Program-made: the position numbers and the translations under genes
Notes under the pieces: model-generated
Told to the model about the DNA's origin: nothing
Database searches by the model: none
Seen by the model: only the letters and a program-made list of their open reading frames with translations
Assembly: GCA_003142595.1 (NCBI GenBank)
Contig: PLMU01000009.1
Span: forward strand, 8,195-72,194
Direction: 5' to 3'
Length of the DNA: 64,000 nt
Source of the DNA: Phycisphaerales bacterium
Lineage (GTDB): Bacteria; Planctomycetota; Phycisphaerae; Sedimentisphaerales; UBA12454
Shown: positions 18,137 through 62,073 of the stretch, one piece after another
Numbering within the stretch: the first letter of the stretch is position 1
Layout of the letters: each line of letters opens with the position of its first letter

Positions 18137-18144
18137 ATTTTTTT

Positions 18145-18482
18145 GTCCGGTGGGTCTATAAGCCGGGTTCTGTAATAAGCGACCATTTCTCTGGGATTGC
18201 CGTTGCCGACAACCTCAAGCGATCTACCCGCCGAGTTAACGCTCGGGCAGAGCATCTCGGCATACTTGATCTTGCAGGCGGTGGGGTTTGCCGTGCCGGT
18301 TCTGTCGCCAGAACCGCGGTGCGCTCTTACCGCACCTTTTCACCATTGCCCGAAGGCTGTGTATTTTCTGTGGCACTTTCCCGCGGATTACTCCGGGTGG
18401 CTGTTAGCCATCACCGCGCCCTGTCCTGCCCGGACTTTCCTCTATATGGTTTCCCATACAGCGGCCGCCCGACCCGCCGGAC
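18145..18482 (-). ncRNA. rnpB: RNase P RNA (class A)
   Basis: Reverse strand has GAGGAAAGUCCGGGC, AGUGCCACAGAAA, GGUGCGGUAAGAGCGCACC and ACAGAACCCGGCUUAU; complementary ends form P1. Confidence 0.97.
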
Positions 18483-18595: not shown

Positions 18596-18624
18596 TTGAT
18601 TTTTAGCCTGTTTTATGGTATAAT
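18596..18624 (+). promoter_or_regulatory. Near-consensus sigma70 promoter upstream of the terminase (TTGATT-N17-TATAAT, extended -10 TG)
   Basis: ttgatt tttagcctgttttatgg tataat, 85 bp upstream of the ATG; divergent from a likely rnpB promoter at 18531-18558. Confidence 0.65.
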
Positions 18625-18709
18625 ACCCGGGTAAAAATATGAAAATACTGTAAAAACGACTTTTTTCCATTTCCAATTTTTTAACCCACAATTTTTTTAA
18701 GGATCCCCT

Positions 18710-20185
18710 ATGAACAACGCTATTTTTCTATCATCAGACCGGATTACAAAGGCAAACAATCTTTATGAAACGCTTAGAAAAACAAGGCCGCGGACAAAAG
18801 CCGATTTGAAAAATTATTTTCAGGCTTTTCTGGGCCTTGGCATCGGCGATACGAAAATATGCCCTGAACATAATTCACCGATGGATTATCTGTGGCACTG
18901 CTATAACAGCGATTTTGACGGAAGCAAAAACGGAGATTGCGTCGTCTGGGCAGGCAGAGGCGGCGGAAAAACACTTATTGCCGCTGCCGCTACACTTGCG
19001 GATTGTATTTTTAAGCCGAACTGCAAGGTGAGAATCCTGGCCGGAAGCGAAATGCAGGCGCAAAGGATGTATGATTATCTGCTCGGATTTTTAAGAAACG
19101 GTTTTGAAGGTTTTCTTGCCGAACCTGTTCATAAAAATAAATGCTGCTTTGCCAACGGCTCAGATGTTGAAGTCCTGCCTCAGTCGGCGGCGTCTGTCCG
19201 CGGCAGTCATATTCAAAAACTGCGGTGCGATGAGGTGGAACTGTTTGACAGGTAGATTTTTGAGGCGGCGAAATTTGTCACCAAAAGCACAGATAAAATA
19301 ATCGGCGCGATGGAAACGTTAAGCACAATGCATCAGCCTTTCGGCATTATGCACGAACTTGTCGGCAAGGCACAGGACAGCGGAACAAAGATTTTTAAAT
19401 GGTGCGTCTGGGAAGTGATTGAAAACTGCCCACCGGAAAGAAATTGCTCAAGATGCCCGCTAAACAGCGATTGTCAGGGAAAGGCAAGAAAAGCAAACGG
19501 CTATCTGAAAATCGACGATTGCATAGCTCAAATGAAACGCTCGAGCAGGGCGGCATTTGAATCTGAAATGCTTTGCGTCAGGCCGTCGCTTGAAAATGTC
19601 GTCTTTGCCGAGTTCGAGCCGCAAATTCATATCGCGCCGGTCGAGTATAACCAGAATCTGCCTTTGTATCGCGCGATTGATTTTGGATTTGTTAATCCGT
19701 TTGTGTGTTTGTGGATTCAGATTGACGCGCAAGGCAGGGTTCGAGTTATCGATGAATATATAAAAAGCAGAATGACGATTGATTCACACGCCGATGAGAT
19801 TAAAAACAGAAAGCCTTATATAGAGGATAATGTGATTGCGACTTTCTGCGACCCTGCAGGGGCAGGCGTAAATGATGTAACGGGCACAAGTCCTGTTTTT
19901 CAGTTAAGACAGGTGGGTGTAAAACTCCGTTTCAAAAGAAGTTCTATTCTTGAAGGTATTGAGCTGATAAGAAGGGCACTTCGCAATGGCGAAGGCAGCA
20001 GCAATCTGATAATCAATCCGCGCTGCGGCAGATTGATTGAAGCGATGCAGAGTTATCATTATCCTCAGGCAGGGTGCGAAGAGCTGCCATTAAAAGACGG
20101 CATTTACGACCACCCGATAGATGCTCTGCGGTATTTCTTTGTGAATTACAATAGTGCAGGTGCAGCAAAGAGCAGGAAATACTGA
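18710..20185 (+). pseudogene. Phage terminase large subunit interrupted by one in-frame TAG (19253-19255)
   Basis: Walker A AGRGGGKT, Walker B LRCDEVE, ETLST, nuclease AIDFGFVNP, CDPAG, DHPIDALRY. The two ORFs share a frame and the gap reads R-*-IFEAAKFVTKSTDKIIGA-M. Confidence 0.88.
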
Positions 20186-21757: not shown

Positions 21758-23101
21758 TTACGGGCAGCTGCTTTGCGGCTGAAGATTGCATTTAAGCCAG
21801 TTTTCAGCCATAACTGCAAAATCCTGAAAATTCACTGTGCCATCACCACTCGGCGAAGGTGCGATATCAGCAGATGGAGAACCCGGCGTCTGTAGCCATT
21901 GGTTGACTAATATCGCCATGTCTTTAAAATCGACTCTGCAATCGCCGTTCAAATCGCCGGCTAACGTCTCAGGGCAATAGCTTGTCGCGACAAAGTTAAC
22001 TCGGCCGATGTCTCCGCCGGTAAGTTGGATACTTAATCCATCCACCAATCCTGTGAACCCGTTGGCCCATGCAGAGCCTGTTTGAACGGAAAACAAAAGA
22101 ACCTTCTGATTTTTATAGGCTGCGTTGGCGGTTAAATCTGATAAGAAGCCGTCTGTGTAGCTGCCGAAATACAGATTATTGGTTGAATCAAAGAACCGCA
22201 GTCTGTTGTTTTGGCTCGCGCCGGTAACCCATCGGTTCCATGTGTTGCAGGGGTCGAGAAGGTTTTGTGAGAAATAAGGTTCGCTGCCGATTCGTTTGCC
22301 ATACCATGAGCCGTGGATAGGCAGATTAGTATCGGGCATAGTGTAAATATTTAGGAACCAATCCGCTGCGTTAACGGTATGAGTTGTATTTTTTTTAGTA
22401 AAATAACTGATGCTTGAAAGTTCTCCAATGTTCACATCGCGTCCGAACAACGCCTGAGGACTGACATAATATTCGGATTTTTGTCCTGCGACTGTGGCGT
22501 TACCCTGCCAGCTTCCCGGGGCAAACTCTGCGGCATAATCGGCAGAGCCTATCGAATTCGCGACTGGTAATGCGGTAACAGTTGTGGTGGTCGGTGGAAC
22601 GGCTGTTGCCACGACCCAGGGATAAACAGTTCCTATGTCGCCCCCGAAACCGAGGCCGGATCCGTGGCCGGCTCCTTCAAACCCCATATAGGCTCGATAG
22701 GGATAAAAGCCCGCAGTCCATGGATCGGGGGGTATGTACCATTGCAAAGACTCTGTGTAGCCGCCGTTCACACCTTTTAAGTAGATGCATCCGTACGTCT
22801 CATTCAGCACGATTTGCGTTGGAGTGACGGAAAACGCATAGATGGAATTCGAGTTGATATATGGGTTGACCTCGACATTGGAGGCAGTGTAGGACTGCGT
22901 CCCCGACGAGATGGTGAATGAGGCAGAATCGATGACACCCGTCGTCGGATCGGCCATGATCGTGCCCGACACATGGATAGTATTTCTCGTCGCTGTATCA
23001 ATCTGGCTGACCGGGTAGTCGACTATGTAGTAAGTTTGAACTGCCGCCGAGGCAATAGTCGCCAGGACAAGTATCACACAAATTATTGTAAACTTTTTCA
23101 T
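21758..23101 (-). CDS. Secreted protein with C-terminal dockerin-like domain (copy 1)
   Basis: MKKFTIIC signal; AGDLNGDCRVDFKD...ADIAPSPSGDGTVNFQDF. Confidence 0.85.
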   Translation of the reverse strand: MKKFTIICVILVLATIASAAVQTYYIVDYPVSQIDTATRNTIHVSGTIMADPTTGVIDSASFTISSGTQSYTASNVEVNPYINSNSIYAFSVTPTQIVLNETYGCIYLKGVNGGYTESLQWYIPPDPWTAGFYPYRAYMGFEGAGHGSGLGFGGDIGTVYPWVVATAVPPTTTTVTALPVANSIGSADYAAEFAPGSWQGNATVAGQKSEYYVSPQALFGRDVNIGELSSISYFTKKNTTHTVNAADWFLNIYTMPDTNLPIHGSWYGKRIGSEPYFSQNLLDPCNTWNRWVTGASQNNRLRFFDSTNNLYFGSYTDGFLSDLTANAAYKNQKVLLFSVQTGSAWANGFTGLVDGLSIQLTGGDIGRVNFVATSYCPETLAGDLNGDCRVDFKDMAILVNQWLQTPGSPSADIAPSPSGDGTVNFQDFAVMAENWLKCNLQPQSSCP

Positions 23102-23131
23102 TTTAGTCTTCTCCAATTTTTTTCCTGATTA

Positions 23132-24001
23132 TTATTTAGGCACACAAGCAGGGTCGGAAGGATTCGTGTCACAATCTATCAACCAGTTGGCGGCCATAAC
23201 TGCAAAATCCTGAAAGTTTACTCTACCATCACCGCTCGGCGAAGGTGCAATATCAGCAGATGGAGAACCTGGCGACTGTAACCATTGATTGACTAATATC
23301 GCCAGGTCTTTAAAATCTACCCTGCAATCGCCGTTCAGATCGCCGGCCAGAATAAACATACAATCTGAAACGGTGTTGGCGTATACGATGAGACTGCCAT
23401 CATTCATGTTGCCCACAAACCTGAAAGTGTCCTGGTAGTCATAGAGTGTAAGGTCGGCTGTGTTAGGGCTATGGGCCCAATGTATTCCGCCATCGGATAC
23501 GAGGGTGCCGGAGAATTCGGAACCGTTAAGCACAAAGTCCGTGATGGAGGCGCCTCGGAGGGGACTGTTGTAATATGGAGATGATATAGACCAAGCGCAA
23601 CCTAACACGTTACGGGATGGACCAGCGCTGCTGTCTCTGTCCCAGGCAGCCACGTTCGCCTGGTTCATGGAAATATTGATGGTGAACTGGTTCAGCGACG
23701 ATTGATACAGGTGGTGCGTGTTGTAATTAGTGTAGGGGCCGGGGTAAAGATAGTCCCAGAGATGAGGATCCGTGGATAGTGCGAAATTAAACGCGCTAGG
23801 TTCGTACTCGGGGGGGCCAGACAAATCCTGGCTATACGTAAAATATTCCGTAGTCACATTCCCATCTGACGAGGACCCGTGGCTTATGTCACCATAGGTG
23901 GTTCTTCCAAGCTCAAACTCATAGGCTTGGGCAGTGCTAATTGTGCCCAGGCACAGCATCGCGATTGTTACTACTGCACAAATTGTAATTAACTTTTTCA
24001 T
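23132..24001 (-). CDS. Secreted protein with C-terminal dockerin-like domain (copy 2)
   Basis: MKKLITIC signal; same C-terminal module. Confidence 0.85.
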   Translation of the reverse strand: MKKLITICAVVTIAMLCLGTISTAQAYEFELGRTTYGDISHGSSSDGNVTTEYFTYSQDLSGPPEYEPSAFNFALSTDPHLWDYLYPGPYTNYNTHHLYQSSLNQFTINISMNQANVAAWDRDSSAGPSRNVLGCAWSISSPYYNSPLRGASITDFVLNGSEFSGTLVSDGGIHWAHSPNTADLTLYDYQDTFRFVGNMNDGSLIVYANTVSDCMFILAGDLNGDCRVDFKDLAILVNQWLQSPGSPSADIAPSPSGDGRVNFQDFAVMAANWLIDCDTNPSDPACVPK

Positions 24002-24128
24002 TTTAGTCTTCTCCAATTTCTTTGAGCCACGAAAACTCAAAGTTATTTTTTCACTATGCCGTTTCAAAAAGAACTGCCGGCGTGAAAGTTTTTTCAACGG
24101 CCGCAACATTCCTATTTTTTCCTGATTG

Positions 24129-25058
24129 TTATTTAGGCACACAAGCAGGGTCGGAAGGATTTGTGTCACAATCTATCAGCCAGTTGGCAGCCATAACTGC
24201 AAAATCCTGAAAGTTCACTCTACCATCACCGCTCGGCGAAGGTGTAATATCGGCAGAAGGCAATCCGGGTGGTTGTAGCCATTGTTCGCACAAAACTTTC
24301 AGGTCCATAAAATCCACCCTGCAGTCATCGTTCAGATCGCCTGCTATAACAAACAGACACGTAGCAGCATAGCTCGTGCCGTTAAGTTCCACACTTGAAA
24401 CAATAGCTTTCATGCCGTCAAAATTGCCGCTGGTACCCACGACAAAGTCGATTGAATAGACTAAATCTGTCCCGTCGATGTCATTGACCGGCAACATACC
24501 AGGAACGATCGTTGAGAAAGGGCTCCAAAAATTGCCGAAACCATTGCGAGCGTCGTTGGCGTTCCAATAGTAATAGTTTCCCAGGGCATCCCTGGTGACG
24601 AACGTCAAATCTGGAGTCCCCGCACCAGGGGGGTTGTTGTCGCCAGATAAGAAATTGTCCCCGCGGTTTGAACTAGCTACATAGCCGAGGGTTGCCGGGT
24701 TGTGGTTCTGCGCCATCCAGTCGATTCCCGTTCCTTCGAGGGTTGCATCGCCGTCCGCATCGGTATTCAACACGACTTCCAAAGCAAAGCCGCCCGCGCC
24801 AGCGGTTGTGATCTTCGAAGTGTACGAAAGCGACGTGATGGCATTGAGTGCTATCCCTCCGTCGATATTCAGCCGGACGTAAGCACTTCCAGCAGTGCCG
24901 GTGCCTATTGCAGTGGACAGTTCAACGCCGACAGGGGTAACAGTCGCCGTTGCTCCGGTACCTACGGTACCGTATGAAATTTTGTTTACAGCAGAGGAAA
25001 CCCCATTTACTGTTAGAATGACTGCAATTGCTGCACAAATTGCAATTAACTTTTTCAT
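24129..25058 (-). CDS. Secreted protein with C-terminal dockerin-like domain (copy 3)
   Basis: MKKLIAIC signal; last ~110 bp nearly identical to copy 2. Confidence 0.85.
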   Translation of the reverse strand: MKKLIAICAAIAVILTVNGVSSAVNKISYGTVGTGATATVTPVGVELSTAIGTGTAGSAYVRLNIDGGIALNAITSLSYTSKITTAGAGGFALEVVLNTDADGDATLEGTGIDWMAQNHNPATLGYVASSNRGDNFLSGDNNPPGAGTPDLTFVTRDALGNYYYWNANDARNGFGNFWSPFSTIVPGMLPVNDIDGTDLVYSIDFVVGTSGNFDGMKAIVSSVELNGTSYAATCLFVIAGDLNDDCRVDFMDLKVLCEQWLQPPGLPSADITPSPSGDGRVNFQDFAVMAANWLIDCDTNPSDPACVPK

Positions 25059-25415
25059 TTTCTCTTCCTCCAGAGATAAATTCTTGTCTTTCAAATAATG
25101 AAAGACTGAAACGGCTTAGCAGAAGCGCGGAGAGATAATATAGATAACTTAGAAAACAGCGGTCCTTGCCTTGAAGTGGTTCCTGTTGAACAAATCTTCA
25201 TCTACTCCAACCTCCTGGCCTATTTTAACATATCTATCATAATTATACCCCTCGGCAGAGGTATATGTAAAGAGAAAACAAAATTATATTTCTTAACCTC
25301 TTGTTTTAAAAGAAGTTAAGGTGATTATTAGGATAGTAAATCCAAAATTTAAAGACTGTTTATAAATAAGTTGTCAAAACGCCTGCTTTGGTGTAAAAAA
25401 TGCAGGACTGAATAA

Positions 25416-35102: not shown

Positions 35103-35752
35103 TTACCTTTGATTTTTATAAACAACTTCAGCGTCGCCCGCTAAATGTTTAATGACAATCACTTCCGGCAGCAAATCAGCCAGTAAATCATCGTGTGAGC
35201 TTGCAAGGATAAAGATTTTGCCTGTCTTTGTTGCGAATTTTCGCAGGTTATGACTGATTACGGCAGCGGTTACCCTGTCTAATTGGCTGCAGAACTCATC
35301 TGCGAAGATGAATTGTTTGTCGTCTGCCAGTGCTTTTGCGATTCGGTAGCGGTATTTCTGTCCTTCGCTCAGATTTGCCGGTGAATTAAGAACGCAAAAG
35401 ACATCTGTCAGGCCCGCATTGCTTAAATTCCTGAGAGTATCAAGAAATCCGCCCGGCACACAGTCAACGCAGGATTTATCGCTCGGCAGGGGGGGATGTC
35501 GTCGATGTTAATTTTATTATCGCAGGCAAATGAATTGAAAAATTCTCTAAGCAGAACGCTTTTGCCGCTGCCTGACGGGCCGGTGATGTAGGCAATTTCG
35601 CCGGTGGATATTTTAATCTCACATTTGTGTGTGACAGTATTATTTTTCAGTCTCTGGACTGTTATGCCGAACGCCCGCATAACATCGGAGATTTTTTCGG
35701 TTACAGGCAGAACCCAGTCGAATTTTTTATTTGCGGATAATGTAGTAGTCAT
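35103..35752 (-). pseudogene. Soluble ABC-type ATPase, frameshifted at a C7 tract (35489-35495)
   Basis: Upstream part has GPSGSGKS; downstream part has LSEGQKYR, IFADEF, SSHDD. Restoring the frame gives DIPLPSDKSCVDCVPGG. Confidence 0.8.
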
Positions 35753-51394: not shown

Positions 51395-51475
51395 TGGTAC
51401 TCCCATAAAAATATTCTTCAATTATTATACGATAGTTCCAGAGCAAATCAATCGATTATTCCTGTCTGTTTTTTT

Positions 51476-51598
51476 ACAAAGCGCGCAATATAAAACTTGC
51501 GCGCTTTAAAAAAATAAAAAAATTTATCTCCATATCCGGCAAGGAGTTACAAATTTCACATCTGGAATTTTGTTCGAAATTTAGCACAAAGCGCGCAA
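51476..51598. promoter_or_regulatory. Three AAAGCGCGCAA motifs upstream of the portal operon
   Basis: acaaagcgcgcaa (51476), inverted ttgcgcgcttt (51497), acaaagcgcgcaa (51586). Confidence 0.55.
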
Positions 51599-51649
51599 CT
51601 TCCTATGTAGGGTGGAAAGACATATAAATCAAAATTGCGGAGAAATTTA

Positions 51650-53179
51650 ATGGCCTTTGATTTTACAAATTTAGAGACAAATAATCTCAATCCAAATTTT
51701 GTCGATTGGCTCGTCGATGAGCAGTGGGTCGATATGCAGACTCACTTCGGCAGGTTCTGGGATTATTATCAGAATCCGATGTATTCAACGATCGGCCTGT
51801 CGGCGGCTGATGCCAAACTGAATGAATCGGCGCGAACTTACGTTCAGGCTCAGGAAATGGGACTGCCTGCGAGAATTACCGGCATAAAAAGAAGCGAGGC
51901 AAGCGGACTTTTGGGCGGCAGGGCTGTTGCGGAGATAGAACGCAAAGAAGTTGTAATAGAAAATGATATAGGCTGGCGAATCAACGCTATGGTGGATTTT
52001 CTGTTCGGCAAAGGCGTTGATATTGTCTGCAGAGCGGAAGATAAAAGCAGACGCGCTGAAATCGATAAAATACTGAAACAGGTATTTAATTCCAACGGCG
52101 GGGTAAGGTTCTTTCAGGATATGGCAGTGCTCGGGGCTGTTTATGGTTTTGTGGACTGTATAGTCCGGCCGGGACAGAAAATCGCAGACTTCGTGCAAAA
52201 TTTTTCATCTTCTTCATCTTTTTCTCTCCAGAAGGCGTTAGAACTTATTTCTGATTGCGGTCTGGAACTGATTGAGGCCCAAAGAGCACTGCCTGTTCTG
52301 GAAGAAAGAGATTTCAGAAAAATCAGTTTTTATGTTCAGCATTTTATCGAGCAGAAAAATGAAACAGCAAATGAAGGAAATTTTCTGCGAAGACTGCTTG
52401 GCGGCAAAGGCAGCAGCACAGCAAGGCATTCGATAGCGGTTACAGAGATTATTTCGCCCAGCTGGTGGCAGAGGTATGAGGAAAAACAACTGGCGGAAGA
52501 AGGGCCGAATATTATGGGCATTATTCCTGTCGTGCATATTCAGAATATCGCGCAGCCATTGTATTACGAGGGAATAAGCGATGTCGAGCCGTTGATACCG
52601 CTTCAAGATGAATTGAATACGAGGCTTAGCGACAGGGCGAGCAGGATAACGTTCCAGGCATTTAAAATGTATCTCGCCAAGGGGATTGAAGGCATTGAGA
52701 ACAGGGCGGTATCGCCGGGCAGGATGTGGTGCACAGATAATCCTGACGCGAGCATTGAGCAGTTCGGCGGGGATTCGACAACGCCAAGCGAAGACGCTCA
52801 TATCTCGGAAATAAGAGAAGCACTGGACAAGGCAAGCGGCGTTACGCCTGTGGTTGCCGGTGTGTTGAAAGATAAAGTCGGCAATCTGACAAGCGCGGTC
52901 GCTTTGAAAATGACACTGATGGGTATGCTGGCAAAGACAGAGCGGAAAAATTACGCATACGGTCAGGGGATTAAAGAGATTGCCGCGATGGTGATGCATC
53001 TGCTTGATGTAACAAATATTTATCCCAACTCGAAAGATAAAAGAGTGTTCGATGTGATTTTTCCAAGTCCGCTGCCGGAAAACACTCTTGAAAAACTCAA
53101 TGAGGCAAAATTGAAACAGGAACTCGGGGTATCCAAAGAACAGGTCCTTAGAGAACTCGGTTATGAAACAAATTCATAG
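51650..53179 (+). CDS. Phage portal protein (SPP1 gp6-like)
   Basis: RINAMVDFLFGK, IPVVHIQN, GISDVEPLIPLQDELN, SAVALK; first gene of a head operon. Confidence 0.85.
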   Translation: MAFDFTNLETNNLNPNFVDWLVDEQWVDMQTHFGRFWDYYQNPMYSTIGLSAADAKLNESARTYVQAQEMGLPARITGIKRSEASGLLGGRAVAEIERKEVVIENDIGWRINAMVDFLFGKGVDIVCRAEDKSRRAEIDKILKQVFNSNGGVRFFQDMAVLGAVYGFVDCIVRPGQKIADFVQNFSSSSSFSLQKALELISDCGLELIEAQRALPVLEERDFRKISFYVQHFIEQKNETANEGNFLRRLLGGKGSSTARHSIAVTEIISPSWWQRYEEKQLAEEGPNIMGIIPVVHIQNIAQPLYYEGISDVEPLIPLQDELNTRLSDRASRITFQAFKMYLAKGIEGIENRAVSPGRMWCTDNPDASIEQFGGDSTTPSEDAHISEIREALDKASGVTPVVAGVLKDKVGNLTSAVALKMTLMGMLAKTERKNYAYGQGIKEIAAMVMHLLDVTNIYPNSKDKRVFDVIFPSPLPENTLEKLNEAKLKQELGVSKEQVLRELGYETNS

Positions 53180-53191
53180 GAGAAATTTTTA

Positions 53192-53707
53192 ATGAGTCAG
53201 ATTGACACAGAAATTAACGGTTCGGATGAACCACAGCAGCGAAGTGAAAAGCTTGTAGATGTAAGCGAGGCTATTCGCTACCGCAAAAGAGCACAGAGTG
53301 CCGAGCAGAAGCAGAGTTTGCTTGAACAGGAACTTGCCGAGAGCAGAGGTGAAGTTGAAAGACTGAATAAAAATTTTTCACAGATGACGATTGAGCGGCA
53401 GTTGATAGAAAACCTTACTTCGGCAGGTGTTCGAGACCTGGAAGCGGCCGTGATAATCGGCAAAGCCAGACTTGAAAACAATGGAAAGGCTACAGCGGCG
53501 GATATTGTCGAGCAATTGAAGAAAGAAAAAAGTTATTTGTTCTCTGACAGTAACTTATCCGGCGCAGTCGGGACAAAGACAAGCGGAGTCAAAGACAAGT
53601 TGTCGGGCACAACAGGAGCGCTTGAACGGACTGCCAAAAAAGCGGCCAAGAGCGGCTCAAGAACGGACCTGCAGGAGTATCTGCGGGCAAGAAGAAATTT
53701 TGTGTAA
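53192..53707 (+). CDS. Capsid scaffolding-like protein
   Basis: Coiled coil, VEQLKKEKSYLF, basic C-terminus; lies between portal and capsid. Confidence 0.7.
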   Translation: MSQIDTEINGSDEPQQRSEKLVDVSEAIRYRKRAQSAEQKQSLLEQELAESRGEVERLNKNFSQMTIERQLIENLTSAGVRDLEAAVIIGKARLENNGKATAADIVEQLKKEKSYLFSDSNLSGAVGTKTSGVKDKLSGTTGALERTAKKAAKSGSRTDLQEYLRARRNFV

Positions 53708-53717
53708 TAAAAATATA

Positions 53718-53742
53718 GATTCCCGCTTACGCGGGAATGACA
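53718..53742. repeat. REP-like palindrome gattcccgc-ttac-gcgggaatgaca
   Basis: ATTCCC-N8-GGGAAT core between scaffold and capsid genes. Confidence 0.65.
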
Positions 53743-53764
53743 ACCAACATAAAGGAGAATAATT

Positions 53765-54913
53765 ATGGCATTTACAGGTAAAGCGACATACTCGGCAGGA
53801 ATAACTCTGCCGGAAATCGCAGAAGATGTATCAGACCTTATCGGGATTATTTCACCCAGTGAGGTGCCTTTGCTTGATGCGATAGGCGACCCTCTGCGCG
53901 AGGCGAAAAGCACATATCACGAATGGCTTGAGGATTCGCTTGTTCCCAATAAGGACACAGTCAGCGACAGTTCTATCAGCGACCCTGACGGTGAAACTAG
54001 CTTTGATGTCGCCAATGGCGATAGATTCAGAGCAGGCGACCAGATTCAGGCTGAAAACTCCGAAGAGCTGATACTGATAACAGGAGTAAGCGGCAATACG
54101 ATTACAGTTGTTCGCGGCTATGCCGGGACAACTGCGGAAAATATCGCCAATGGTCAGGTGATTAAAATTCTCGGCAATGCCGCGCTTGAAGGCGACGATA
54201 AACCCGCGGCAAGATTTACCAATCGCGTCCGCTGCGGAAATTACACGCAGATTTTCACGGCCGGTGTCGAAGTCAGCGGCACAAATATCGCCGCCGGTCA
54301 TCTTGGTATTTCAGACGAGATGGATTATCAAAAGGCCGAGAGGCTGCGCGAGTTGGTTCGCGACCTTGAAAACACTGTAATCAACGGCGGTCAGCCATCG
54401 GCAAATCCGCAGGGCGGGGCATCTGTTCGCAGGAGTATGAAGGGCATAGTCCAGAATATCACGACGAATGTTTTTCGGCCCGGCAGTTCAGGATTCCCGA
54501 GCGGGACAGGTCTTGACGAGGCAAAGATTAATTATGTGCTGCGTCAGATATGGGAGAACAGCAACGGCAATGTCGATTTGATTGTTGTCGGCGGATATCA
54601 GAAGCGCAAGATTAACTCGTTTCTGATTACCAGCAGAAGTTTCTGGCCGGCGGACAAGGCATACACCGATATGGTCAGCGTTTATGAAAGCGACTTCGGC
54701 GTTTGCAGGATTCTCACCAGCAGATGGATTCCGCAGGACGCAGTGCTGCTTCTTGATTCATCGCGGATAAGCGTTCTTCCTCTTGCAGGCAGAAGCTTCC
54801 ACTTCAAACCTCTGGCAAGCGGAGGCGATTATGAAAGTGGACAACTCATCGGCGAATATACACTTGAGTTCAAAAATGAAGCCGCACACGGTCTAATCAG
54901 GGACCTTGTGTAA
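53765..54913 (+). CDS. Major capsid protein (DUF5309/SU10-like, HK97 fold)
   Basis: EDVSDLIGIISPSEVP, HEWLEDSL, NYTQIF...VSGT, YESDFG, GEYTLEFKNEAAHG; strong SD aaggag. Confidence 0.85.
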   Translation: MAFTGKATYSAGITLPEIAEDVSDLIGIISPSEVPLLDAIGDPLREAKSTYHEWLEDSLVPNKDTVSDSSISDPDGETSFDVANGDRFRAGDQIQAENSEELILITGVSGNTITVVRGYAGTTAENIANGQVIKILGNAALEGDDKPAARFTNRVRCGNYTQIFTAGVEVSGTNIAAGHLGISDEMDYQKAERLRELVRDLENTVINGGQPSANPQGGASVRRSMKGIVQNITTNVFRPGSSGFPSGTGLDEAKINYVLRQIWENSNGNVDLIVVGGYQKRKINSFLITSRSFWPADKAYTDMVSVYESDFGVCRILTSRWIPQDAVLLLDSSRISVLPLAGRSFHFKPLASGGDYESGQLIGEYTLEFKNEAAHGLIRDLV

Positions 54914-54932
54914 GTTAGAAATTTACTTTTTT

Positions 54933-55000
54933 CGGCCGGGCACGGATATCTACAAAACCATTGCGATTTTAAAGGTTAGATAATTCCGTCCCGGCCGGGA
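54933..55000 (+). other. Long GC-rich hairpin after the capsid gene
   Basis: cggccgggcacgga-tatcta...tagata-attccgtcccggccg. Confidence 0.6.
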
Positions 55001-55019
55001 TAAAGTTTGAGGTAAAACA

Positions 55020-55675
55020 ATGAATAATTTTTCATACGATGTTGACATTTTGAAATATGAGCCGAGCTTGTTCGACGATTTGCATTTCGCCAGCCAGGTA
55101 TTAATAAGCGGCAGCGGCGCAGAAATATCGGGGGCAACTTTTAATGCGCCGGGCGCGAATTTCAACGCCGCTAAAATTACAGCCGGGATGGTTGTATATC
55201 TGCAAAGCACCGATGGCGTTGTTGATGGGCATACGAGATAGTATCGGTGGATTCCGCAACGCAGCTTACCATTTCTGTTTTAAGAGCTGACGGGCAAAGC
55301 GATGTTATAGCTCTGGCAGACGGCGAAAATGTGAATTACAGGATTTGCACTTATCAGCCGCAAAGCTGTGAAGTGTTCCTGCAACTTACGCAGCATTTTG
55401 GATTAAGACCGGGTGCGCCTGACGGAGATTACAGCGCCGACGATATTCTTGACATCTCGGCTTTGAGACAAGTATCGGTGTATGGGGTTATGTCGATAAT
55501 TTTTGCGACGCTTGCAGGCAAAGCGGATGAAGCGAATTTCTGGGCAAAGAGCAAATATTACAGGCAGCTTTTTGAAAAAGCATTGCAACGCAGCAGGGTA
55601 AGTATCGACCTGGGCGATGATGGCGTCGCGGATTCTGTCCGCAGCGGCGCAAGCGTCAGATTGTTGAGGGATTAA
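55020..55675 (+). pseudogene. Head-completion/adaptor-like protein with a -1 frameshift at 55227-55229
   Basis: Adding one G to GATGGGCATACGAG gives continuous DGVVDGAYEIVSVDSATQL; C-terminal WAKSKYYRQLFEKAL...DLGDDG. Confidence 0.65.
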
Positions 55676-55676
55676 A

Positions 55677-56048
55677 ATGAAAGCTGTGCTCGATAATGAA
55701 ATAATTTTCAATGAAGAATCTTTCGAGCTGGAAATAAAAAGTTTTCAGAGGGAAGTTGTTCAAAGGTCTGCTGCAGGCCTTGACGGGCAGGTGAGTATCG
55801 ACCTTGGTTTGCGGGGAAGAAAGCTTGTGCAGAAAGGCGAACTGCGAGCCAAAAATCAGGCTGAACTTCAGGGAATAATAGATGATATAAATGGGCTTAT
55901 CGACGGCAATGAGTATATTTTGAAAAGTTCTGACGGAAGAGTATTTGAAAATCTTGTGATTGATAATTTTCAGGCCGGTTCTTTTGTCTTCGGCGGGACA
56001 CAAGCCAGTTGCAAATATCAAATAACTTATACGCAGCAGGTTAGCTAA
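55677..56048 (+). CDS. Virion structural hypothetical protein
   Basis: Tightly packed in the capsid operon; beta-rich. Confidence 0.6.
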   Translation: MKAVLDNEIIFNEESFELEIKSFQREVVQRSAAGLDGQVSIDLGLRGRKLVQKGELRAKNQAELQGIIDDINGLIDGNEYILKSSDGRVFENLVIDNFQAGSFVFGGTQASCKYQITYTQQVS

Positions 56049-56752
56049 TGATTTCAAGTGAAGGAATAAGCAAAGTAAGAGCATTTGCGTTGTCGGCAGG
56101 AGCGGCGGTTGTTAAATGGCATTCGACCAGCAGTGATATGCTGCATCAGGTTTATGTCAACGGCAGATTTGCAGGTGCGACAGTTGAGCCGATGCAGAGA
56201 CAATTGATTGTGGCGATTCCGCTTTCTGTAAAAACTGCTGTGCAGATAGAAGTTTTTGCTGTTGAGCCGGAGTATTCTGATATTGATTATTCTGCGGGGC
56301 AATCTCAATCGGGGCGGGCGAAGATTGAATTTCCTCGAACAGATAATCTGCCGACAGGCGGAAACGTTGATTATTATCTTGAGGAAAACAAACTCAGCAA
56401 TAGAAGCATAAGAATCCAACCGGAATTTGCGGACAAAGGCGGATTTGGTCTGAGCAGTTTTGCGATGAGCGATTTCGGATATGACGGCTCTGCTGCGATG
56501 GGGCTGGGCAAAGGAAATTTTGGGGTTGGCTGGTTTGGTTTTGACTGCGATATGCTCTGCTGGCAAAGCGGACAATTAGAAGCAGGCAGATATAAATTTG
56601 ATATTAAAATAACTGATAAATTGGGTAATGAAACAGATGAGCAGATTGAAACGGAGGAGATGGCAGTTATCCCGCCGGCTACGCCTGCTAAAAAACTTAT
56701 AATCAAGTCATTTGATAAGCAAAGCGGTAAATTAATTTTGGAAGCGATATAG
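56048..56752 (+). CDS. Virion structural hypothetical protein with GFG repeats
   Basis: GGFGLSSFAMSDFGYDG..GLGKGNFGVGWFGFD; translationally coupled. Confidence 0.6.
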   Translation: MISSEGISKVRAFALSAGAAVVKWHSTSSDMLHQVYVNGRFAGATVEPMQRQLIVAIPLSVKTAVQIEVFAVEPEYSDIDYSAGQSQSGRAKIEFPRTDNLPTGGNVDYYLEENKLSNRSIRIQPEFADKGGFGLSSFAMSDFGYDGSAAMGLGKGNFGVGWFGFDCDMLCWQSGQLEAGRYKFDIKITDKLGNETDEQIETEEMAVIPPATPAKKLIIKSFDKQSGKLILEAI

Positions 56753-56762
56753 GAGATTTAAA

Positions 56763-57215
56763 ATGGCAGAAGTATATCCATCGGATAATGAACTTTTGAA
56801 TATTGTAAGCGACGGCGAGACAGGCGTTGAGTATATCACCACAGGCAAGGCGCCCTATTATCTTGAGTTTCGCAAACTGCTTTACAGATTGCTTCTGGCG
56901 GCAAGACGGGCGAATGATTTGCGTCTGTTCGATGAGGGTGGGCTGGACATCGGCGTTAAGGGCGGCAAGTTCTGGCTGGGGACAACGCTGATAAATTACG
57001 CCGGCTCAAGCGGCAATACGCTGGCGGATAATAAAAGCAATATCTATATCTATCTTAATTCGTCAGGCAATCTGGTCGTGAATGAATACACAGCTTTTCC
57101 TAATATGGCGGCAAATCCTCATTTAAGACTGGCAATCGTAACAACAAACAGCGGCGATATTACGTCAATCACAGATGTCAGATGTAATTTCTATGTGCCG
57201 GGGACAGGAGCGTAA
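56763..57215 (+). CDS. Structural protein, possible fibre/spike anchor
   Basis: SD aggag; C-terminal HLRLAIVTTNSGDITSITDVR resembles fibre attachment segments. Confidence 0.5.
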   Translation: MAEVYPSDNELLNIVSDGETGVEYITTGKAPYYLEFRKLLYRLLLAARRANDLRLFDEGGLDIGVKGGKFWLGTTLINYAGSSGNTLADNKSNIYIYLNSSGNLVVNEYTAFPNMAANPHLRLAIVTTNSGDITSITDVRCNFYVPGTGA

Positions 57216-58334
57216 ATGGCAACAATTATTTATGCAGACGGGACTTTAACGACCGGCAGTAACAACGGGACAAGCTGGGCAAACGCCTATCGGGGCTGCG
57301 CAGGTTTGCAGACCGCTCTTGACATCGCAGTCAACGGCAGCAATACAATAATTTATGTCCGCAACACTTTTTCAGTCGGCACTTACGGCAGCACGATAGA
57401 TATTGATACCGCTGGCGGCGACTATACAAACAACAACTGGCTGAAAATTATCGGCTGCGATAGTATTACCGGCAATCCTTTGCCGCAGGGGCAGTATGTA
57501 ATCTTGGATGGAGAAAATCTGTTAAGCGGTCATATTTTTAATATTTCCAATGTAAATATGATACATATAGAGAATATTCATTTTACAAGAGCATCGGCAT
57601 CAGGCAAAGCAGGATGCTATCTTACCGCAAGCAGCGTAAGATACGGTTATAATTTTATAAACTGCAAATTTTCATTATGCAGTAACGGTTTATATGCTCC
57701 TGTAAACAATAATCGAAATGTGTATGTTTATAGATGCGAGTTTTTAAGCAACTCCACTTACGATTTTTACTCATCAATATGCATGCCGACAATAACGGCT
57801 AACAGATTCAAATCGGCCTGCCCGTCTATTTTCGCTGCGCTGGGCGGGGCGATTGCCGGGTGCATATTTGAAAATTCTCAAAACAGCGGAACAGTTGTTA
57901 CGCTGAATGGGCATGTGACGCTGAGAGGCGAGGCGGTACTTACTAATTGCACTTTTTATTGCACCGGCACCGGCGGCATAACAGCGATAAACTGCAATAA
58001 TCTGGTCGGGTCTGTGATAATAAATAATATTTTTCACTTTGCCCAGCCGGCAGCTGATATTCCAATATCATCGCCAAGAATAAGTTTCGAGGATTATAAC
58101 TGCACAAACGCAACCGCTCATATTTTGACAGGTTCCCACAGTTTGAATTCCACAGACCCGCAATTTGCAGATTCGGCAAATGAAAATTTCAGGCCTCGAA
58201 ATTGTCTTGTTCTGCGCGGCGGAATGCCGGATTATTCAGGGAATCCAGGTCAAATCGGAGCTGTCGCGGGCAAATATCAGTTCATATCAAAAGCAAAAGG
58301 CGCTAATTTCGGCAGACTTTCAATATTCAGATAG
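57216..58334 (+). CDS. Right-handed beta-helix (tailspike-like) protein
   Basis: NGTSWANAY, INCKF/AGCIF/TNCTF/INNIF ladder, DPQFAD..N.NFR; AT-richer core. Confidence 0.65.
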   Translation: MATIIYADGTLTTGSNNGTSWANAYRGCAGLQTALDIAVNGSNTIIYVRNTFSVGTYGSTIDIDTAGGDYTNNNWLKIIGCDSITGNPLPQGQYVILDGENLLSGHIFNISNVNMIHIENIHFTRASASGKAGCYLTASSVRYGYNFINCKFSLCSNGLYAPVNNNRNVYVYRCEFLSNSTYDFYSSICMPTITANRFKSACPSIFAALGGAIAGCIFENSQNSGTVVTLNGHVTLRGEAVLTNCTFYCTGTGGITAINCNNLVGSVIINNIFHFAQPAADIPISSPRISFEDYNCTNATAHILTGSHSLNSTDPQFADSANENFRPRNCLVLRGGMPDYSGNPGQIGAVAGKYQFISKAKGANFGRLSIFR

Positions 58335-58345
58335 GAGTTTGGATA

Positions 58346-58789
58346 ATGGCAAATACAGCGATAGATATTCCATTTTATGTTTCAAAAGACGGCTCGCCTT
58401 TGAGCGGTGCAGCGGCTGAAATGAATTTCGAATCTTTAAGAATGATTGGCGGGACAGACAAAAGCGGCTCGGCTCCTGCAATCAGCGAAATAGGAGGAGG
58501 CTGGTATAAATTCAGCGCTGCTTACGGCTCGGCGCCTTTCGACGGCGGAGACCTTGTCGGGGTTATTGACGCAGATAAGAACGAAAGCAATAAACTGGCA
58601 AACGCAGAGCGATACATTCCCGTTGAAGTCCGATTAGATTTTTATGCTTTAATGAGAAACGTTTATAAAATGTCACAGGACAAACTGACAGGCGATATGG
58701 AAATTAAAAATTCAGGCGGCGGAACAATTCTGATTCTCGATATTACTGACGGCGACAGTGAAGTTGTCAGAGAGCCGACGTGGAACTGA
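58346..58789 (+). CDS. Structural hypothetical protein
   Basis: SD aggag; EIGGGWYKF; operonic. Confidence 0.6.
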   Translation: MANTAIDIPFYVSKDGSPLSGAAAEMNFESLRMIGGTDKSGSAPAISEIGGGWYKFSAAYGSAPFDGGDLVGVIDADKNESNKLANAERYIPVEVRLDFYALMRNVYKMSQDKLTGDMEIKNSGGGTILILDITDGDSEVVREPTWN

Positions 58790-59115
58790 TGGAAGCTAAA
58801 TTCTTTGACAGTTTATCAGGCGGAGATTCCGCAAACGGCGCAAAGCTCTGTATGGGGCTTACAGACGGGGACTTCTGGTCCTGCTTGAGCGGCGTACAGC
58901 TTTTGTATAAGGGGCAGGATAGTAATAATGTTGATTTCGGCCGGATTGAGGCAGTCTCAAATATAAATAATAAAAACTTTGAGCTCTCGTCCGGCCAACC
59001 TTTATCTCTTTGGCTCTATGTCGTCAGGCGGGTGAACCGCTGCGGAATGGAAGAACAAACGCTGTCGGCGGCGGTGATGGTCGCATTCGATAGTCTGGGC
59101 AATCTGATAGGCTAA
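58780..59115 (+). CDS. Hypothetical protein in the structural operon
   Basis: Overlaps the previous gene; YVVRRVN.CG.EE. Confidence 0.5.
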   Translation: MELMEAKFFDSLSGGDSANGAKLCMGLTDGDFWSCLSGVQLLYKGQDSNNVDFGRIEAVSNINNKNFELSSGQPLSLWLYVVRRVNRCGMEEQTLSAAVMVAFDSLGNLIG

Positions 59116-59117
59116 TT

Positions 59118-60905
59118 ATGAACAATTCAAACAGAATAGATTGTTATCAATGTCCAAATAATCTGCTTGCTGTCCGCGCAGCGGTAGCAAAAGTTTATAT
59201 CGACGGACAATTATGCGATTTTCTTGTCGCTCAAAAGGTAACGCTGGCGGCAGATAACGATTTCAATCAGGCGATACTGAATTTTTATTCAAAAGATGAT
59301 GATATAAGCTCTTTTGCGGTATGCGGGCAAAGAGTTGAAATTAAAATCGCATACGACAGCGGAATTGGAAAAACAATTCCTGATGAAATTACCGTATTTA
59401 CCGGCTTTATCGAACAGATTGATACCGAGATATCTTCAAAGCAGCAGAAAATAACTGTTATCGCAAAAGATTCATCAGCCAGGCTCAGAAGAAAAACGGT
59501 TTACGGCGCAACAGTTGCAAATCAGGGACAGGGGATTTTTATCAGCGGCGCGGATACTGCTTTTAATCCGGCAGGAGCGGCAAATGCCTCACGGCAGCAA
59601 ATCAGGCAAAACGGCAGAAGTTTTATGGCGTTTGCCGCTGATGAAAACGACGCTGAAGTGTTCAGTTGTGCCGATGCGATTTATTATCTTCTATGCAGTT
59701 ACATTCCCGCCGACCAGCTTGTTATTCCGACTCTTGAACAGCTTAATAGTCTGACCTGCGAGCGGAGCATTATCGATATCGATGTTACAGGTCTTAATTT
59801 AATTGACGCTTTGCGGCGATGCTGCGGACAAGCAGGAGTTCGATTCAAGTTTGTTCCAAATCTCAGCCAGACAGGACCAACAGAAGCGATAGTTTTTTTC
59901 AGGCCGAGCGATTGTGCTGAAGTTGAACTGAATTGCCAGTGGCAGGGCGAGAAACTGGATATTTTAAAAACTACCGTTGCTGAAATAACAGGTCAAAAAA
60001 ATCTCGCACCAATAACACACAGATATATCGTGCAGGGCGATTATAAAATTTATGAGGCGACATTTGAACTGGTAAAGGCCTGGGACCCTGCGCTTGAAGA
60101 AAATAATTATGAGCGGTATTCGCCGGTTACTAATGAAAATTTCAATGAAGTCCGCGACGTTTACCGCAAGTGGTGCCTCAATGAGGCGGGCGATTACGGC
60201 GGCAGTCCTTACAATCAGGGAACGGCGTTTGATTTTTCAAAGATTTTTGAAAACGGCTCATATGTCCGCAAAAAAAGACGGTTTCTGCCGGCACTTACCA
60301 GCGGCAAAGACGGCTCATCAATCGGTTATTATCTTGAAGTCTCATACACTAACGGAAGCCATTGGTGGCCTTATATGGCATCTTTCAAGGTTTTGCTCGA
60401 CCAGTGCGGCGTGTGGCTATCGGCAGAGCAGCTCGATATGGATGTGTGGTTCGCGATTCTCAAAGGAGTTTTAAAGTTCAGAATAACCGCATCGGTAATC
60501 GCAGATGAAAGAATAAGTTTTGCCGCTGCCGATGGGCCGGTGAATTCGACTGCCGAGGTAATTGATAAAATTATTACCCTGCCGCGAAGATTCAGATATA
60601 AAAAAGTCTCGCCGGAGAGCATTTTTGCAAATAATCCTGCCGACCAGACAGACGACAGCGAATCATTAGTTGAATTTGCCAGGACAATGGCTGATGGCGG
60701 ACATAGCGAAACTGAAAAGATGAATATCAAGACGCTTTTACTTATGCCTTTTTTAAGTCCCGGCAGCAGGATTGTAAACAGCCAGGACAGCAGAGATATT
60801 TTGAACATTAAATACGACAACAGAAGTTTTAGCTGGATTAAAAGCGTCGATATGGATTTTGAAAATCAGCAGACAACAATTACAGCGGTCAAAACGAGGA
60901 AATAA
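59118..60905 (+). CDS. Large tail/hub-like structural protein
   Basis: VFTGFIEQID...ITVIAKD beta-barrel-like N-terminus and IKSVDMDF..Q.TTI C-terminus, as in tail hub proteins. Confidence 0.55.
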   Translation: MNNSNRIDCYQCPNNLLAVRAAVAKVYIDGQLCDFLVAQKVTLAADNDFNQAILNFYSKDDDISSFAVCGQRVEIKIAYDSGIGKTIPDEITVFTGFIEQIDTEISSKQQKITVIAKDSSARLRRKTVYGATVANQGQGIFISGADTAFNPAGAANASRQQIRQNGRSFMAFAADENDAEVFSCADAIYYLLCSYIPADQLVIPTLEQLNSLTCERSIIDIDVTGLNLIDALRRCCGQAGVRFKFVPNLSQTGPTEAIVFFRPSDCAEVELNCQWQGEKLDILKTTVAEITGQKNLAPITHRYIVQGDYKIYEATFELVKAWDPALEENNYERYSPVTNENFNEVRDVYRKWCLNEAGDYGGSPYNQGTAFDFSKIFENGSYVRKKRRFLPALTSGKDGSSIGYYLEVSYTNGSHWWPYMASFKVLLDQCGVWLSAEQLDMDVWFAILKGVLKFRITASVIADERISFAAADGPVNSTAEVIDKIITLPRRFRYKKVSPESIFANNPADQTDDSESLVEFARTMADGGHSETEKMNIKTLLLMPFLSPGSRIVNSQDSRDILNIKYDNRSFSWIKSVDMDFENQQTTITAVKTRK

Positions 60906-60906
60906 A

Positions 60907-61239
60907 ATGTCGGAACAGATTTATCAAAGTGAAAATCAGCAGTTGATGGAAAGGCTCCTGCGCAGAAGCGATGAGCAGACTGAAAACGCCTTTGTAACTT
61001 CAGCGGGCGGAAAGGCTGTCGGCTTTGCGGCAAAGGTCATCAGCAGAAATAGCTTCAATTATTACAATGTAAGCTCTGTCGAGCTTGAGGGCCCGGGAGC
61101 AATTCCGATGCTGATGGGCGAGGCGGTTTTAGCTGCTAATTTGGCTGAGTCGTTCACGGCACAGGGAAATCTGCCCGCGGGCAAATATGTAATAGTGTTT
61201 AAAATAGGCGATTGCAACGCTTTTTATGCTCCGGTGTAG
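60907..61239 (+). CDS. Hypothetical structural protein
   Basis: Operonic; AANLAE, VIVF. Confidence 0.55.
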   Translation: MSEQIYQSENQQLMERLLRRSDEQTENAFVTSAGGKAVGFAAKVISRNSFNYYNVSSVELEGPGAIPMLMGEAVLAANLAESFTAQGNLPAGKYVIVFKIGDCNAFYAPV

Positions 61240-61254
61240 AAAATCAAACCACGA

Positions 61255-61545
61255 ATGAACACGAATAAACACAAATTATTTAATTGGTATTTCAGCAGAC
61301 AGATAGATCTATCGGTGCTTATACAACTCGTTTTTCTGGCGGCATTGATTGTCGGAACGTGGGTCAATCTGCAGAAGCAGCTTTCATTATTGCAGCACGA
61401 CATAACAAGCCTGATTGAAACGCAAAAGGAGTTTCAGCAGCGGACTGAGGAATTAAGCAGAACAAGCATAACCTATGAATACCGTCTGCGTGCGATTGAA
61501 AAGAAAATACCCGAAGCTGATATCGGCAAAGATGGAAAAATGTGA
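61255..61545 (+). CDS. Small TM + coiled-coil protein (holin-like position)
   Basis: IDLSVLIQLVFLAALIVGTW TM then heptads, RLRAIE. Confidence 0.55.
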   Translation: MNTNKHKLFNWYFSRQIDLSVLIQLVFLAALIVGTWVNLQKQLSLLQHDITSLIETQKEFQQRTEELSRTSITYEYRLRAIEKKIPEADIGKDGKM

Positions 61546-61569
61546 AAATTTATTTAAGAAGGGTTTATT

Positions 61570-62073
61570 ATGAACTGGAAAGTAATTTTATCTATTATTG
61601 TTATCGCTGCGGTTGTATTTGTTACGGGCTGTCAGTTTCTTTATGACTGCTGGCCTGCCGACATATCGCCGCTGGCGGTTAAATACGCAGGTCGTGACCC
61701 GAACAGTATTAAATGGTATGACAAAAACCTGCACACAGCCGGCGAATTAAAAAATCAGGTGATAGATACCTATACCGGCGAACAGTTGCGGCTCGATTAT
61801 CTGGCTAATCTTAACAAAGAAAAATATCAGCAGGTAATCGGCATTCTCGATTTGTCCATAAAACAGGCTGAAGCCGACAGAATGGCTGCGATAGGAACGC
61901 TTGCCCAGCCGGGCTGGCTCTTGGCGGGCCTGATGACTCTGCTGCCTATCGGGTCGTATGTTGCAGGCTGGCGGACTTTGTGGCCTTCACATTATACAGA
62001 AGAAGAAGTCCAAGCCGCCGTTCAACAAGCTCAGGATGCGGCAATCGCAACTACAAAAAGCGCAAACGCATAA
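61570..62073 (+). CDS. Lipoprotein with C-terminal TM helix
   Basis: VTGC lipobox; WLLAGLMTLLPIGSYVAGW TM. Confidence 0.6.
   Translation: MNWKVILSIIVIAAVVFVTGCQFLYDCWPADISPLAVKYAGRDPNSIKWYDKNLHTAGELKNQVIDTYTGEQLRLDYLANLNKEKYQQVIGILDLSIKQAEADRMAAIGTLAQPGWLLAGLMTLLPIGSYVAGWRTLWPSHYTEEEVQAAVQQAQDAAIATTKSANA

Follow-up and report, generated by a model that had tools for sequence, protein, structure and literature searches.

In this study we analyzed a 64,000-nucleotide stretch of DNA (the window) from a Phycisphaerales bacterium of the order Sedimentisphaerales (NCBI GenBank assembly GCA_003142595.1, contig PLMU01000009.1, positions 8,195 to 72,194), which carries an operon of phage-like structural genes at 51650-62073 on the + strand. 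Together the results favor, with a probability that we place at roughly 0.6, the interpretation that this operon belongs to a vertically inherited, domesticated derivative of a tailed phage in the class Phycisphaerae, a "viriform" resembling a gene transfer agent (GTA). The evidence comes from the genes of the cluster, from a large terminase (TerL) gene at a separate locus, and from the way in which both are inherited among related genomes.

Gene content of the operon

The open reading frames (ORFs) of 51650-62073 all lie on the + strand, with neighbors spaced by -10 to 106 nt, as expected from an earlier reading of the window made from its letters alone (the original prediction), which had described a tight operon of 13 genes. 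ORFs of 73 and 142 amino acids (aa) that it listed separately form a single split gene of 217-220 aa, and therefore the operon holds 14 genes. The features of the cluster and the separate terminase locus are as follows.

51473..51619 (+): promoter-like repeat of ~147 nt upstream of the portal gene, core GCGCAAGTT-N8-AAGGGTGGAGGGACA
51650..53179 (+): portal (PF05133, phrog_64)
53192..53707 (+): scaffolding-like protein (weak PF06810, phrog_206; between portal and capsid)
53720..53737 (+): hairpin, 7-bp stem and 4-nt loop, between the scaffold and capsid genes
53765..54913 (+): major capsid protein, SU10/DUF5309 type (PF17236, phrog_1328, PDB sequence matches)
55020..55675 (+): g04/05, adaptor-like by position, 217-220 aa, split by a 1-nt deletion
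55677..56048 (+): g06, 123 aa, predicted ring of Dit/tube-initiator fold (AlphaFold2 model, Foldseek)
56048..56752 (+): g07, conserved, with a Gly/Phe-rich block (alignment of orthologues)
56763..57215 (+): g08, putative fibre-anchor domain (N-terminus of longer proteins in distant relatives)
57216..58334 (+): g09, 372 aa, putative hypervariable receptor-binding protein of beta-helix type (identity pattern, homologues)
58346..58789 (+): g10, conserved, 147 aa (15 orthologues)
58780..59115 (+): g11, 111 aa, immediately 5' of the hub gene
59118..60905 (+): g12, 595 aa, predicted hub of gp27/VgrG/Tal type (AlphaFold2 model, Foldseek)
60907..61239 (+): g13a, conserved, ~110 aa (14 orthologues of 109-132 aa)
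61255..61545 (+): g13b, single-pass membrane protein (hydropathy; 15 orthologues)
61570..62073 (+): g14, lipobox (VTGC) and second hydrophobic segment (hydropathy)
18710..20185 (+): TerL, standing alone (Terminase_6N, Terminase_6C; in-frame TAG at 19253-19255)

When 16 ORFs were scanned against Pfam and PHROGs, only four were named by families (the portal, the scaffold weakly, the capsid and a host gene downstream), and 12 had no match in either. Wider searches, with 70 orthologues against Pfam and PHROGs and with 13 window proteins and 2 orthologues against NCBIfam, gave no function for g04 to g14. The predicted portal was confirmed (PF05133, 3.7e-19; phrog_64, 1.2e-24), while PDB searches with it returned nothing useful. 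Its most likely start is ATG 51650, with GGAG 7 nt upstream, in place of the listed TTG at 51635. The capsid call was likewise correct (PF17236 SU10_MCP, 8.5e-85; phrog_1328, 1.1e-76; PDB sequence matches 9ny2, 9in6 and 7z45), and the best match in a cultured phage is only 31.5% identical. The scaffold call fits the position of the gene, its conservation in 61 loci and a weak phrog_206 match (2e-4), but its PF06810 score of 24.4 bits lies below the cut-off of 35. Two membrane proteins had also been predicted, and g13b and g14 indeed contain hydrophobic segments; g13b has one transmembrane segment and a tail that looks like a coiled coil by eye, and g14 has a second transmembrane segment besides its lipobox.

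Chromosomal setting

The cluster lies between host genes, with rubrerythrin, cupin, UbiA and M48 peptidase genes upstream on the other strand and the gene of a response-regulator diguanylate cyclase (RR-GGDEF-HD) downstream. Among 22 flanking ORFs scanned we found no integrase or replication family, although no search was made for attachment (att) repeats, and the 64-kb window contains no tRNA gene. The genome assembly (2.28 Mb, 18 contigs, 98.5% complete) holds one capsid gene and one terminase. Phage-like structural genes are therefore chromosomal here, with no genes for replication, integration or lysogeny found beside them, as in GTAs. The features by which a prophage or a phage-inducible chromosomal island (PICI) is known, namely an integrase, an att site (for which repeats were not searched), a patchy distribution and a contiguous genome, were not found. 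We conclude that the cluster is not a prophage, and the alternative that the genes missing from the operon belong to an ordinary prophage elsewhere finds no support.

A repeat upstream of the portal gene

The core motif of the repeat at 51473-51619 is recognizable 5' of the portal gene in 12 of 15 family loci examined. The strict pattern occurs five times in the genome, the other copies being at C6:28137(-), C12:5168(+), C3:67273(-) and C14:122308(+). The repeat may be a shared promoter or mark a regulon of particle genes. Each of the other four copies stands 5' of a gene that by eye looks like an HNH+AP2 gene, in two pairs of paralogues. Separately, the intergenic stretches 53709-53743, which holds the hairpin, and 61247-61284 are shared, as loose ends show, with many unrelated contigs from four peat metagenomes; they may represent common regulatory or repeat elements.

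The large terminase stands alone at a separate locus

The large terminase that seemed to be missing from the operon is present in the same window, 32 kb upstream of the portal gene. Its two halves match Terminase_6N and Terminase_6C and form one frame interrupted by a TAG codon. The gene is isolated between the RNase P RNA (18143-18480) and a PAS-LuxR gene, and it was the only hit of a genome-wide search with three terminase families. TerL is present in all 41 genomes of the order, open in nearly all of them, with identities ranging from 93% to as low as 48%. Its distance from the capsid gene is 12-130 kb in other genomes of the class and ~0.3-1 Mb in the three complete genomes of the order; only a few distant genomes (G076, G301 and G231) have it next to the head genes, at 4-5 kb. 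In one family (f2) the separation extends to the head and tail modules, with a hub-like ORF 209 kb from the capsid gene in G038. With TerL at a separate locus, the element as we interpret it would probably not move as a unit, and an element in such pieces would not be expected to move as a virus. No small terminase was found beside TerL, and we therefore propose that host DNA would probably be packaged by a headful mechanism.

The surroundings of TerL show some further features. The RNase P RNA directly upstream, on the - strand, is of class A (310 bits), and the two genes are adjacent in four of the nine relatives with readable short flanks (G009, G008, G002 and G021). By eye, 18600-18660 contains a near-consensus sigma-70-like element (TTGATT, ~17 nt, TATAAT, with an upstream TG), which is unlike the element upstream of the portal gene. 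The portal repeat motif was not found upstream of TerL.

Predicted folds suggest a tail core of long-tail type

The 595-aa protein g12 had been called hub-like, and its predicted fold bears this out. The AlphaFold2 model (predicted local distance difference test, pLDDT, 87.3) retrieved from the PDB with Foldseek the Cis8 protein of an extracellular contractile injection system (eCIS; 7aef_q, 6e-13), VgrG1, Mu gp44, T4 gp27 and siphophage Tal. Its matches among the predicted viral structures of BFVD were mostly siphovirus tail proteins, and profile searches matched Pvc8/Afp8. No tblastn match to g12 was found in 50,697 phage records. The model thus points to a tail hub of gp27/VgrG/Tal type.

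Similarly, the model of the 123-aa protein g06 (pLDDT 83.9) matched SPP1 Dit (3.8e-5), the PVC/Afp tube initiators and the Mu and 80alpha baseplates, with tail tubes ranked lower. Language-model features gave P2 GpU (0.93) and Dit_like (0.92), and one orthologue has a weak DNA_circ_N match, in agreement with a Dit fold, whereas PDB profile and sequence searches with g06 itself gave nothing useful. We take g06 to be a predicted Dit/tube-initiator ring. By fold the pair corresponds to the Dit ring and Tal/gp27 hub of siphoviruses, which would make the tail core one of long-tail type.

These models bear on the original prediction of a short-tailed or atypical particle with no recognizable tape measure, tube, sheath, protease or lysin. 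As far as could be tested, the absences stand. No tube, tape measure or chaperone was recognized with Pfam, PHROGs, NCBIfam or PDB profiles, g04/05, g07, g08, g10, g11 and g13a having been searched in this way and not folded. No sheath, protease or lysin was recognized in scans of the cluster, the rest of the genome having been searched for terminase families only, and the cluster has no conserved gene of sheath size. On the other hand, no tube family was recognized but g06 has a tube-family fold, of the Dit/initiator type, and the hub and ring are standard parts of the baseplates of long tails, so that the unassigned ORFs are in part conventional. Two known architectures fit poorly. In a podovirus tail an adaptor and nozzle without a hub would be expected, while here no podophage nozzle or adaptor was recognized and the largest tail protein is a predicted gp27/VgrG-type hub. 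A contractile tailocin or eCIS would lack the capsid, portal and terminase found here.

The remaining tail-region genes are less well defined. The adaptor predicted earlier is a real gene, g04/05, but its adaptor role is inferred from position; PDB searches with it gave nothing useful. For g07 there was no PDB match, and atlas scores to Ig-like tail-tip domains stayed below 0.9 with a poor model. No informative match to g10 was obtained, including by PDB profile search. A tape-measure role was weighed for the gene of 650-720 aa that distant relatives have 5' of the hub gene, and was rejected: the L072 copy begins with a Laminin_G_3 lectin domain, the L050 and L064 copies have no Pfam match, and a related 541-aa protein of L047 also carries Laminin_G_3.

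A variable receptor-binding cassette

The stretch between g08 and the hub gene forms a variable cassette. In g08 a conserved domain of 150 aa is found, which in more distant relatives is the N-terminus of proteins of 242-653 aa with varied C-termini bearing DUF2793 or DUF2961; its profile matches a cyanophage long tail fibre weakly (8kec, 0.0065). The following protein, g09, is only 26-79% identical across family loci, compared with 70-85% for neighboring genes. A beta-helix spike had been predicted at this position, and homologues in relatives do match Beta_helix, NosD and DUF5123, but searches of Pfam and of PDB sequences with the 372-aa protein of the window itself gave no match. From this pattern, g09 appears to be a hypervariable, swappable receptor-binding protein. 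In L047 the cassette contains a homologue of fibre I of podophage GP4 (PF23140, 3.3e-40) and a lectin domain. The small g11 is 111 aa here and 223-230 aa in most relatives, and in L047 it is fused behind Laminin_G_3.

Distribution and inheritance

We collected 80 related loci from metagenome-assembled genomes of Sedimentisphaerales, Phycisphaerae and Planctomycetota. The capsid gene occurs in 36 of 41 Sedimentisphaerales genomes (G000 included), once in each except G018, which has an additional distant match (28% identical). Capsid identity falls in steps, from 85-88% within the genus to 75-88% within the family and 58-77% in other families. In a phylum-wide sample of 301 genomes, 42 gave a capsid match and 41 a TerL match: 33 genomes had both, 9 only the capsid, 8 only TerL and 251 neither (thresholds 1e-3 and 1e-10; counted from two tables, with related genomes not independent). 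A tblastn matrix of the 80 loci showed the whole cluster in the same order and between the same host flanks throughout the family. The core found across the class consists of the portal, scaffold, capsid, g04/05, g06, g07, the N-terminal domain of g08 and g12.

Trees of 21 genomes were built for the capsid, TerL and a host phosphomutase. Families f1, f6, f7 and f8 form clades in all three, as do f3 and f7 as sisters, while f2 is paraphyletic in the capsid tree. Mantel tests on patristic distances gave correlations of 0.86 for capsid and TerL, 0.72 for TerL and host, and 0.57 for capsid and host, with 0 of 2000 permutations as high in each case. The trees were used in place of identities to the window, whose correlations were weak both within the family and among other families. 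Furthermore, pairwise dN/dS of the window against nine family loci was 0.04-0.32 for the cluster genes and 0.06-0.15 for two host flank genes, values that are rough since dS is ~1-3 and therefore saturated. Vertical inheritance under purifying selection is what a GTA would show, with the caveat of two phage-borne capsid copies described below. Based on these comparisons, the cluster is probably a host-fixed, vertically inherited element of the whole class Phycisphaerae.

The same data bear on the idea of a mobile satellite (PICI-like or a capsid-forming island) or a temperate phage that occupies one conserved site. Capsid-forming islands also carry head genes without replication genes, and related capsid genes do occur in phages. 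However, neither an integrase nor a tRNA gene was found at the site (att repeats were not searched for), TerL lies elsewhere, up to ~1 Mb away, flanks and cluster diverge together, and the element is single in each genome. We therefore consider such a mobile element highly improbable.

State of this copy and losses in relatives

In the assembly sequence, the in-frame TAG of TerL (19253-19255) is codon 182, just after the Walker B-like motif LRCDEVELFDR. This residue is glutamine in all eight relatives examined, with CAG and CAA as the two readable codons, and the TAG is thus a C-to-T nonsense change. Reading of TAG as glutamine was considered and rejected: none of the genome's 47 tRNAs is a suppressor, and TAG terminates 191 of 1199 long ORFs.

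A second lesion is a 1-nt deletion near 55228 that splits g04/05 into the ORFs of 73 and 142 aa; of the 41 related loci with a match, 38 have the gene whole, as one ORF of 197-224 aa. The site is spanned without difference by contigs from three peat metagenome runs, one of which was not flagged as a possible source. The deletion is real in the population. A programmed frameshift was considered as well and is not favored; no slippery site was seen by eye. Together, the nonsense codon and the frameshift are probably inactivating, and the system would then be out of order in this genome. Relaxed selection on this lineage was not detectable (nonsynonymous to synonymous changes 47:163 compared with 195:848, p=0.21), which implies that the lesions are recent or tolerated.

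Loss was also seen in relatives. In the closest relative, G009 (TerL 93% and flanks 92-94% identical), the genes from portal to g13b are replaced by ~7.8 kb of other DNA. G009 retains g14 at 92% identity, and g14 may thus lie outside the unit. In G015 only stubs of the portal gene and g14 remain, around a SIR2-STAND gene. The cluster was not found in G020 and G028, which we do not count as losses. The break in G033, where the hub gene sits at the edge of a contig, is a gap in the assembly. The replaced site of G009 (L107 2836-10534) contains DUF4145, HAD and FN3 genes, and that of G015 (L108 6626-9115, - strand) a SIR2-nSTAND5-TPR gene.

The two lesions and the absence of the cluster from G009 and G015 are what a functionless remnant of an ordinary defective prophage in slow decay would show. 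Such a remnant would not be expected to stay intact across such distances, yet most genomes of the order, and others beyond it, have the cluster intact and in synteny, its dN/dS resembles that of host genes even allowing for saturated dS, and its trees track host families. Thus, slow decay of a remnant is in our view very unlikely as a general account of the element.

Capsid copies in phages

Two IMG/VR phage genomes, L170 (G336; 62 kb, terminal repeats, rated complete) and L171 (G337), carry a capsid homologue. Their identity to the copies in hosts reaches 72% and 80%, and they nest inside host clades with weak to moderate support. Each phage has a TerS-TerL-portal module of its own, and the homologue lies away from it, among RecT, PD-(D/E)XK nuclease, methylase, SocA and Lar genes. 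It may be a gene captured from a host and employed against the host particle or together with it.

One alternative is that the domesticated particle serves a different purpose, for example in conflict with phages (by interfering with infecting phages or by abortive packaging), or by delivering to neighboring cells a cargo that is not DNA. A close homologue outside the packaging and portal module in two phages could be a decoy or hijacking gene, and the site of the cluster is now held by a SIR2-STAND-TPR gene in G015 and a DUF4145 gene in G009. In contrast, the co-conservation of portal and TerL with the capsid speaks for DNA packaging, and a hypervariable receptor-binding protein speaks for attachment to cells; the phage copies could be mere products of recombination. 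We regard a role other than DNA transfer as unlikely, though it is the alternative we take most seriously. A broader scenario joins these elements: a class-wide, host-controlled DNA-packaging particle with a minimal Dit and VgrG-like tail, whose capsid gene was captured by phages of these hosts and placed in their early/anti-defense regions as a decoy or hijacking tool, and whose lost copies were replaced by defense genes. We consider this combination speculative and rather doubtful.

Discussion

The preferred reading, that of a domesticated GTA-like particle, suggests the following model, in which all steps are proposed except the gene identities and the evolutionary pattern. A host-controlled promoter would turn the operon on, and a procapsid would be built from the portal, scaffold and SU10-type capsid protein. 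The unlinked TerL would fill the procapsid with DNA, probably host DNA, by headful packaging. The adaptor-like protein of 220 aa, the g06 ring and the g12 hub would together make a very short tail with no recognizable tube or tape measure, on which fibers would be held by the conserved g08 anchor and bear the swappable beta-helix g09. Release could possibly proceed through the two membrane proteins and host enzymes.

Several observations weigh against this interpretation. The present copy carries two lesions, in TerL and in g04/05. TerL is intact in G009 and G015, where the structural cluster has been replaced or lost at its site, and another role for TerL is therefore conceivable. When family f1 was left out, the Mantel correlation between capsid and host fell to 0.34 (79 of 2000 permutations as high), and the saturation of dS makes the evidence for purifying selection rough. 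The nesting of phage capsids within host clades indicates that the capsid gene has not been strictly vertical. The model of the particle is incomplete because none of the genes was recognized as a small terminase, tube, tape measure or lysin, and production of particles, their DNA cargo and transfer of DNA are all inferred from genes.

The closest functional parallel is RcGTA. Both are chromosomal head-tail clusters without replication or integration genes, both are inherited vertically under purifying selection and occupy more than one locus, and both would have a short tail with a hub and variable fibers, the latter judged here from genes. RcGTA encodes an HK97 Phage_capsid-type capsid, a prohead protease, a tube and a tape measure in one cluster. 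In contrast, Pfam gives SU10_MCP and SPP1_portal for the present cluster, with no protease, tube or tape measure family recognized; the capsid is of SU10/DUF5309 type and the portal of SPP1 type, and TerL lies outside the main cluster, whereas that of RcGTA lies inside. Homology to the RcGTA family was thus not found, and the two differ in having independent origins. Independent domestications of tailed phages are known from other phyla, in VSH-1/BhGTA of Brachyspira, Dd1 and VTA. We found no sequence relation to these systems, which were established from particles and transfer assays, unlike the present element, known from genomes.

Among phages, the likeness is divided between head and tail. 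The capsid belongs to the family of SU10, a Kuravirus (PF17236, with a PDB sequence match to SU10 7z45), the gene order portal-scaffold-capsid is that of podophages SU10 and GP4, and the GP4 fibre I homologue of L047 adds to the likeness. Unlike in these podophages, no nozzle or podophage adaptor was recognized and the predicted tail tip is a hub of long-tail type. For the latter, the folds of g06 (Dit/initiator) and g12 (gp27/VgrG/Tal) resemble the baseplate core of siphophages (SPP1 Dit gp19.1 and Tal; 80alpha; Bxb1), and matching folds are found in the hub and tube initiator of Mu, P2 and eCIS. In contrast to all of these, the g06 and g12 genes are not adjacent here, sequence similarity is nil, and no tape measure, tube, chaperones or sheath was recognized.

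Two further observations from the window lie outside these questions. An ABC-type ATPase gene at 35103-35752 (-) appears to be split into a pair of overlapping ORFs, which carry its P-loop and C-terminal portions respectively, and may be another frameshift of this genome. At 21758-25094 (-), three successive genes encode proteins with a C-terminal dockerin type I domain (two above the Pfam cut-off), which is unusual for a planctomycete.

Full-text searches of the published literature found no paper on such an element in Planctomycetes. Hexagonal, tail-less particles were described in a Phycisphaerae isolate after addition of nitrate or ammonium, without lysis, and were assigned by the authors to the extrachromosomal Phage-ZRK32 (PMC10945688). 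According to the description given there, Phage-ZRK32 is extrachromosomal and unrelated, and we do not equate it with the present element. Whether a cluster of the present kind contributes to the hexagonal particles of that isolate is a question we raise here.

The window shows a terminase that is unlinked but co-inherited, the predicted folds of a tail core, and a lineage caught losing the system. A Dit ring with a VgrG-like hub and no recognizable tube or tape measure may show the minimum length of such a tail. To our knowledge, GTAs are known from only a handful of lineages (Alphaproteobacteria, Brachyspira, Desulfovibrio and Methanococcus). If our interpretation is correct, an independent GTA would give bacteria of anoxic sediments and peat a new means of exchanging genes, since a whole class would carry it as a fixed trait, in a phylum whose cell envelope is unusual and for which genetic tools are few, and it might serve as a natural DNA-delivery vehicle for planctomycetes.

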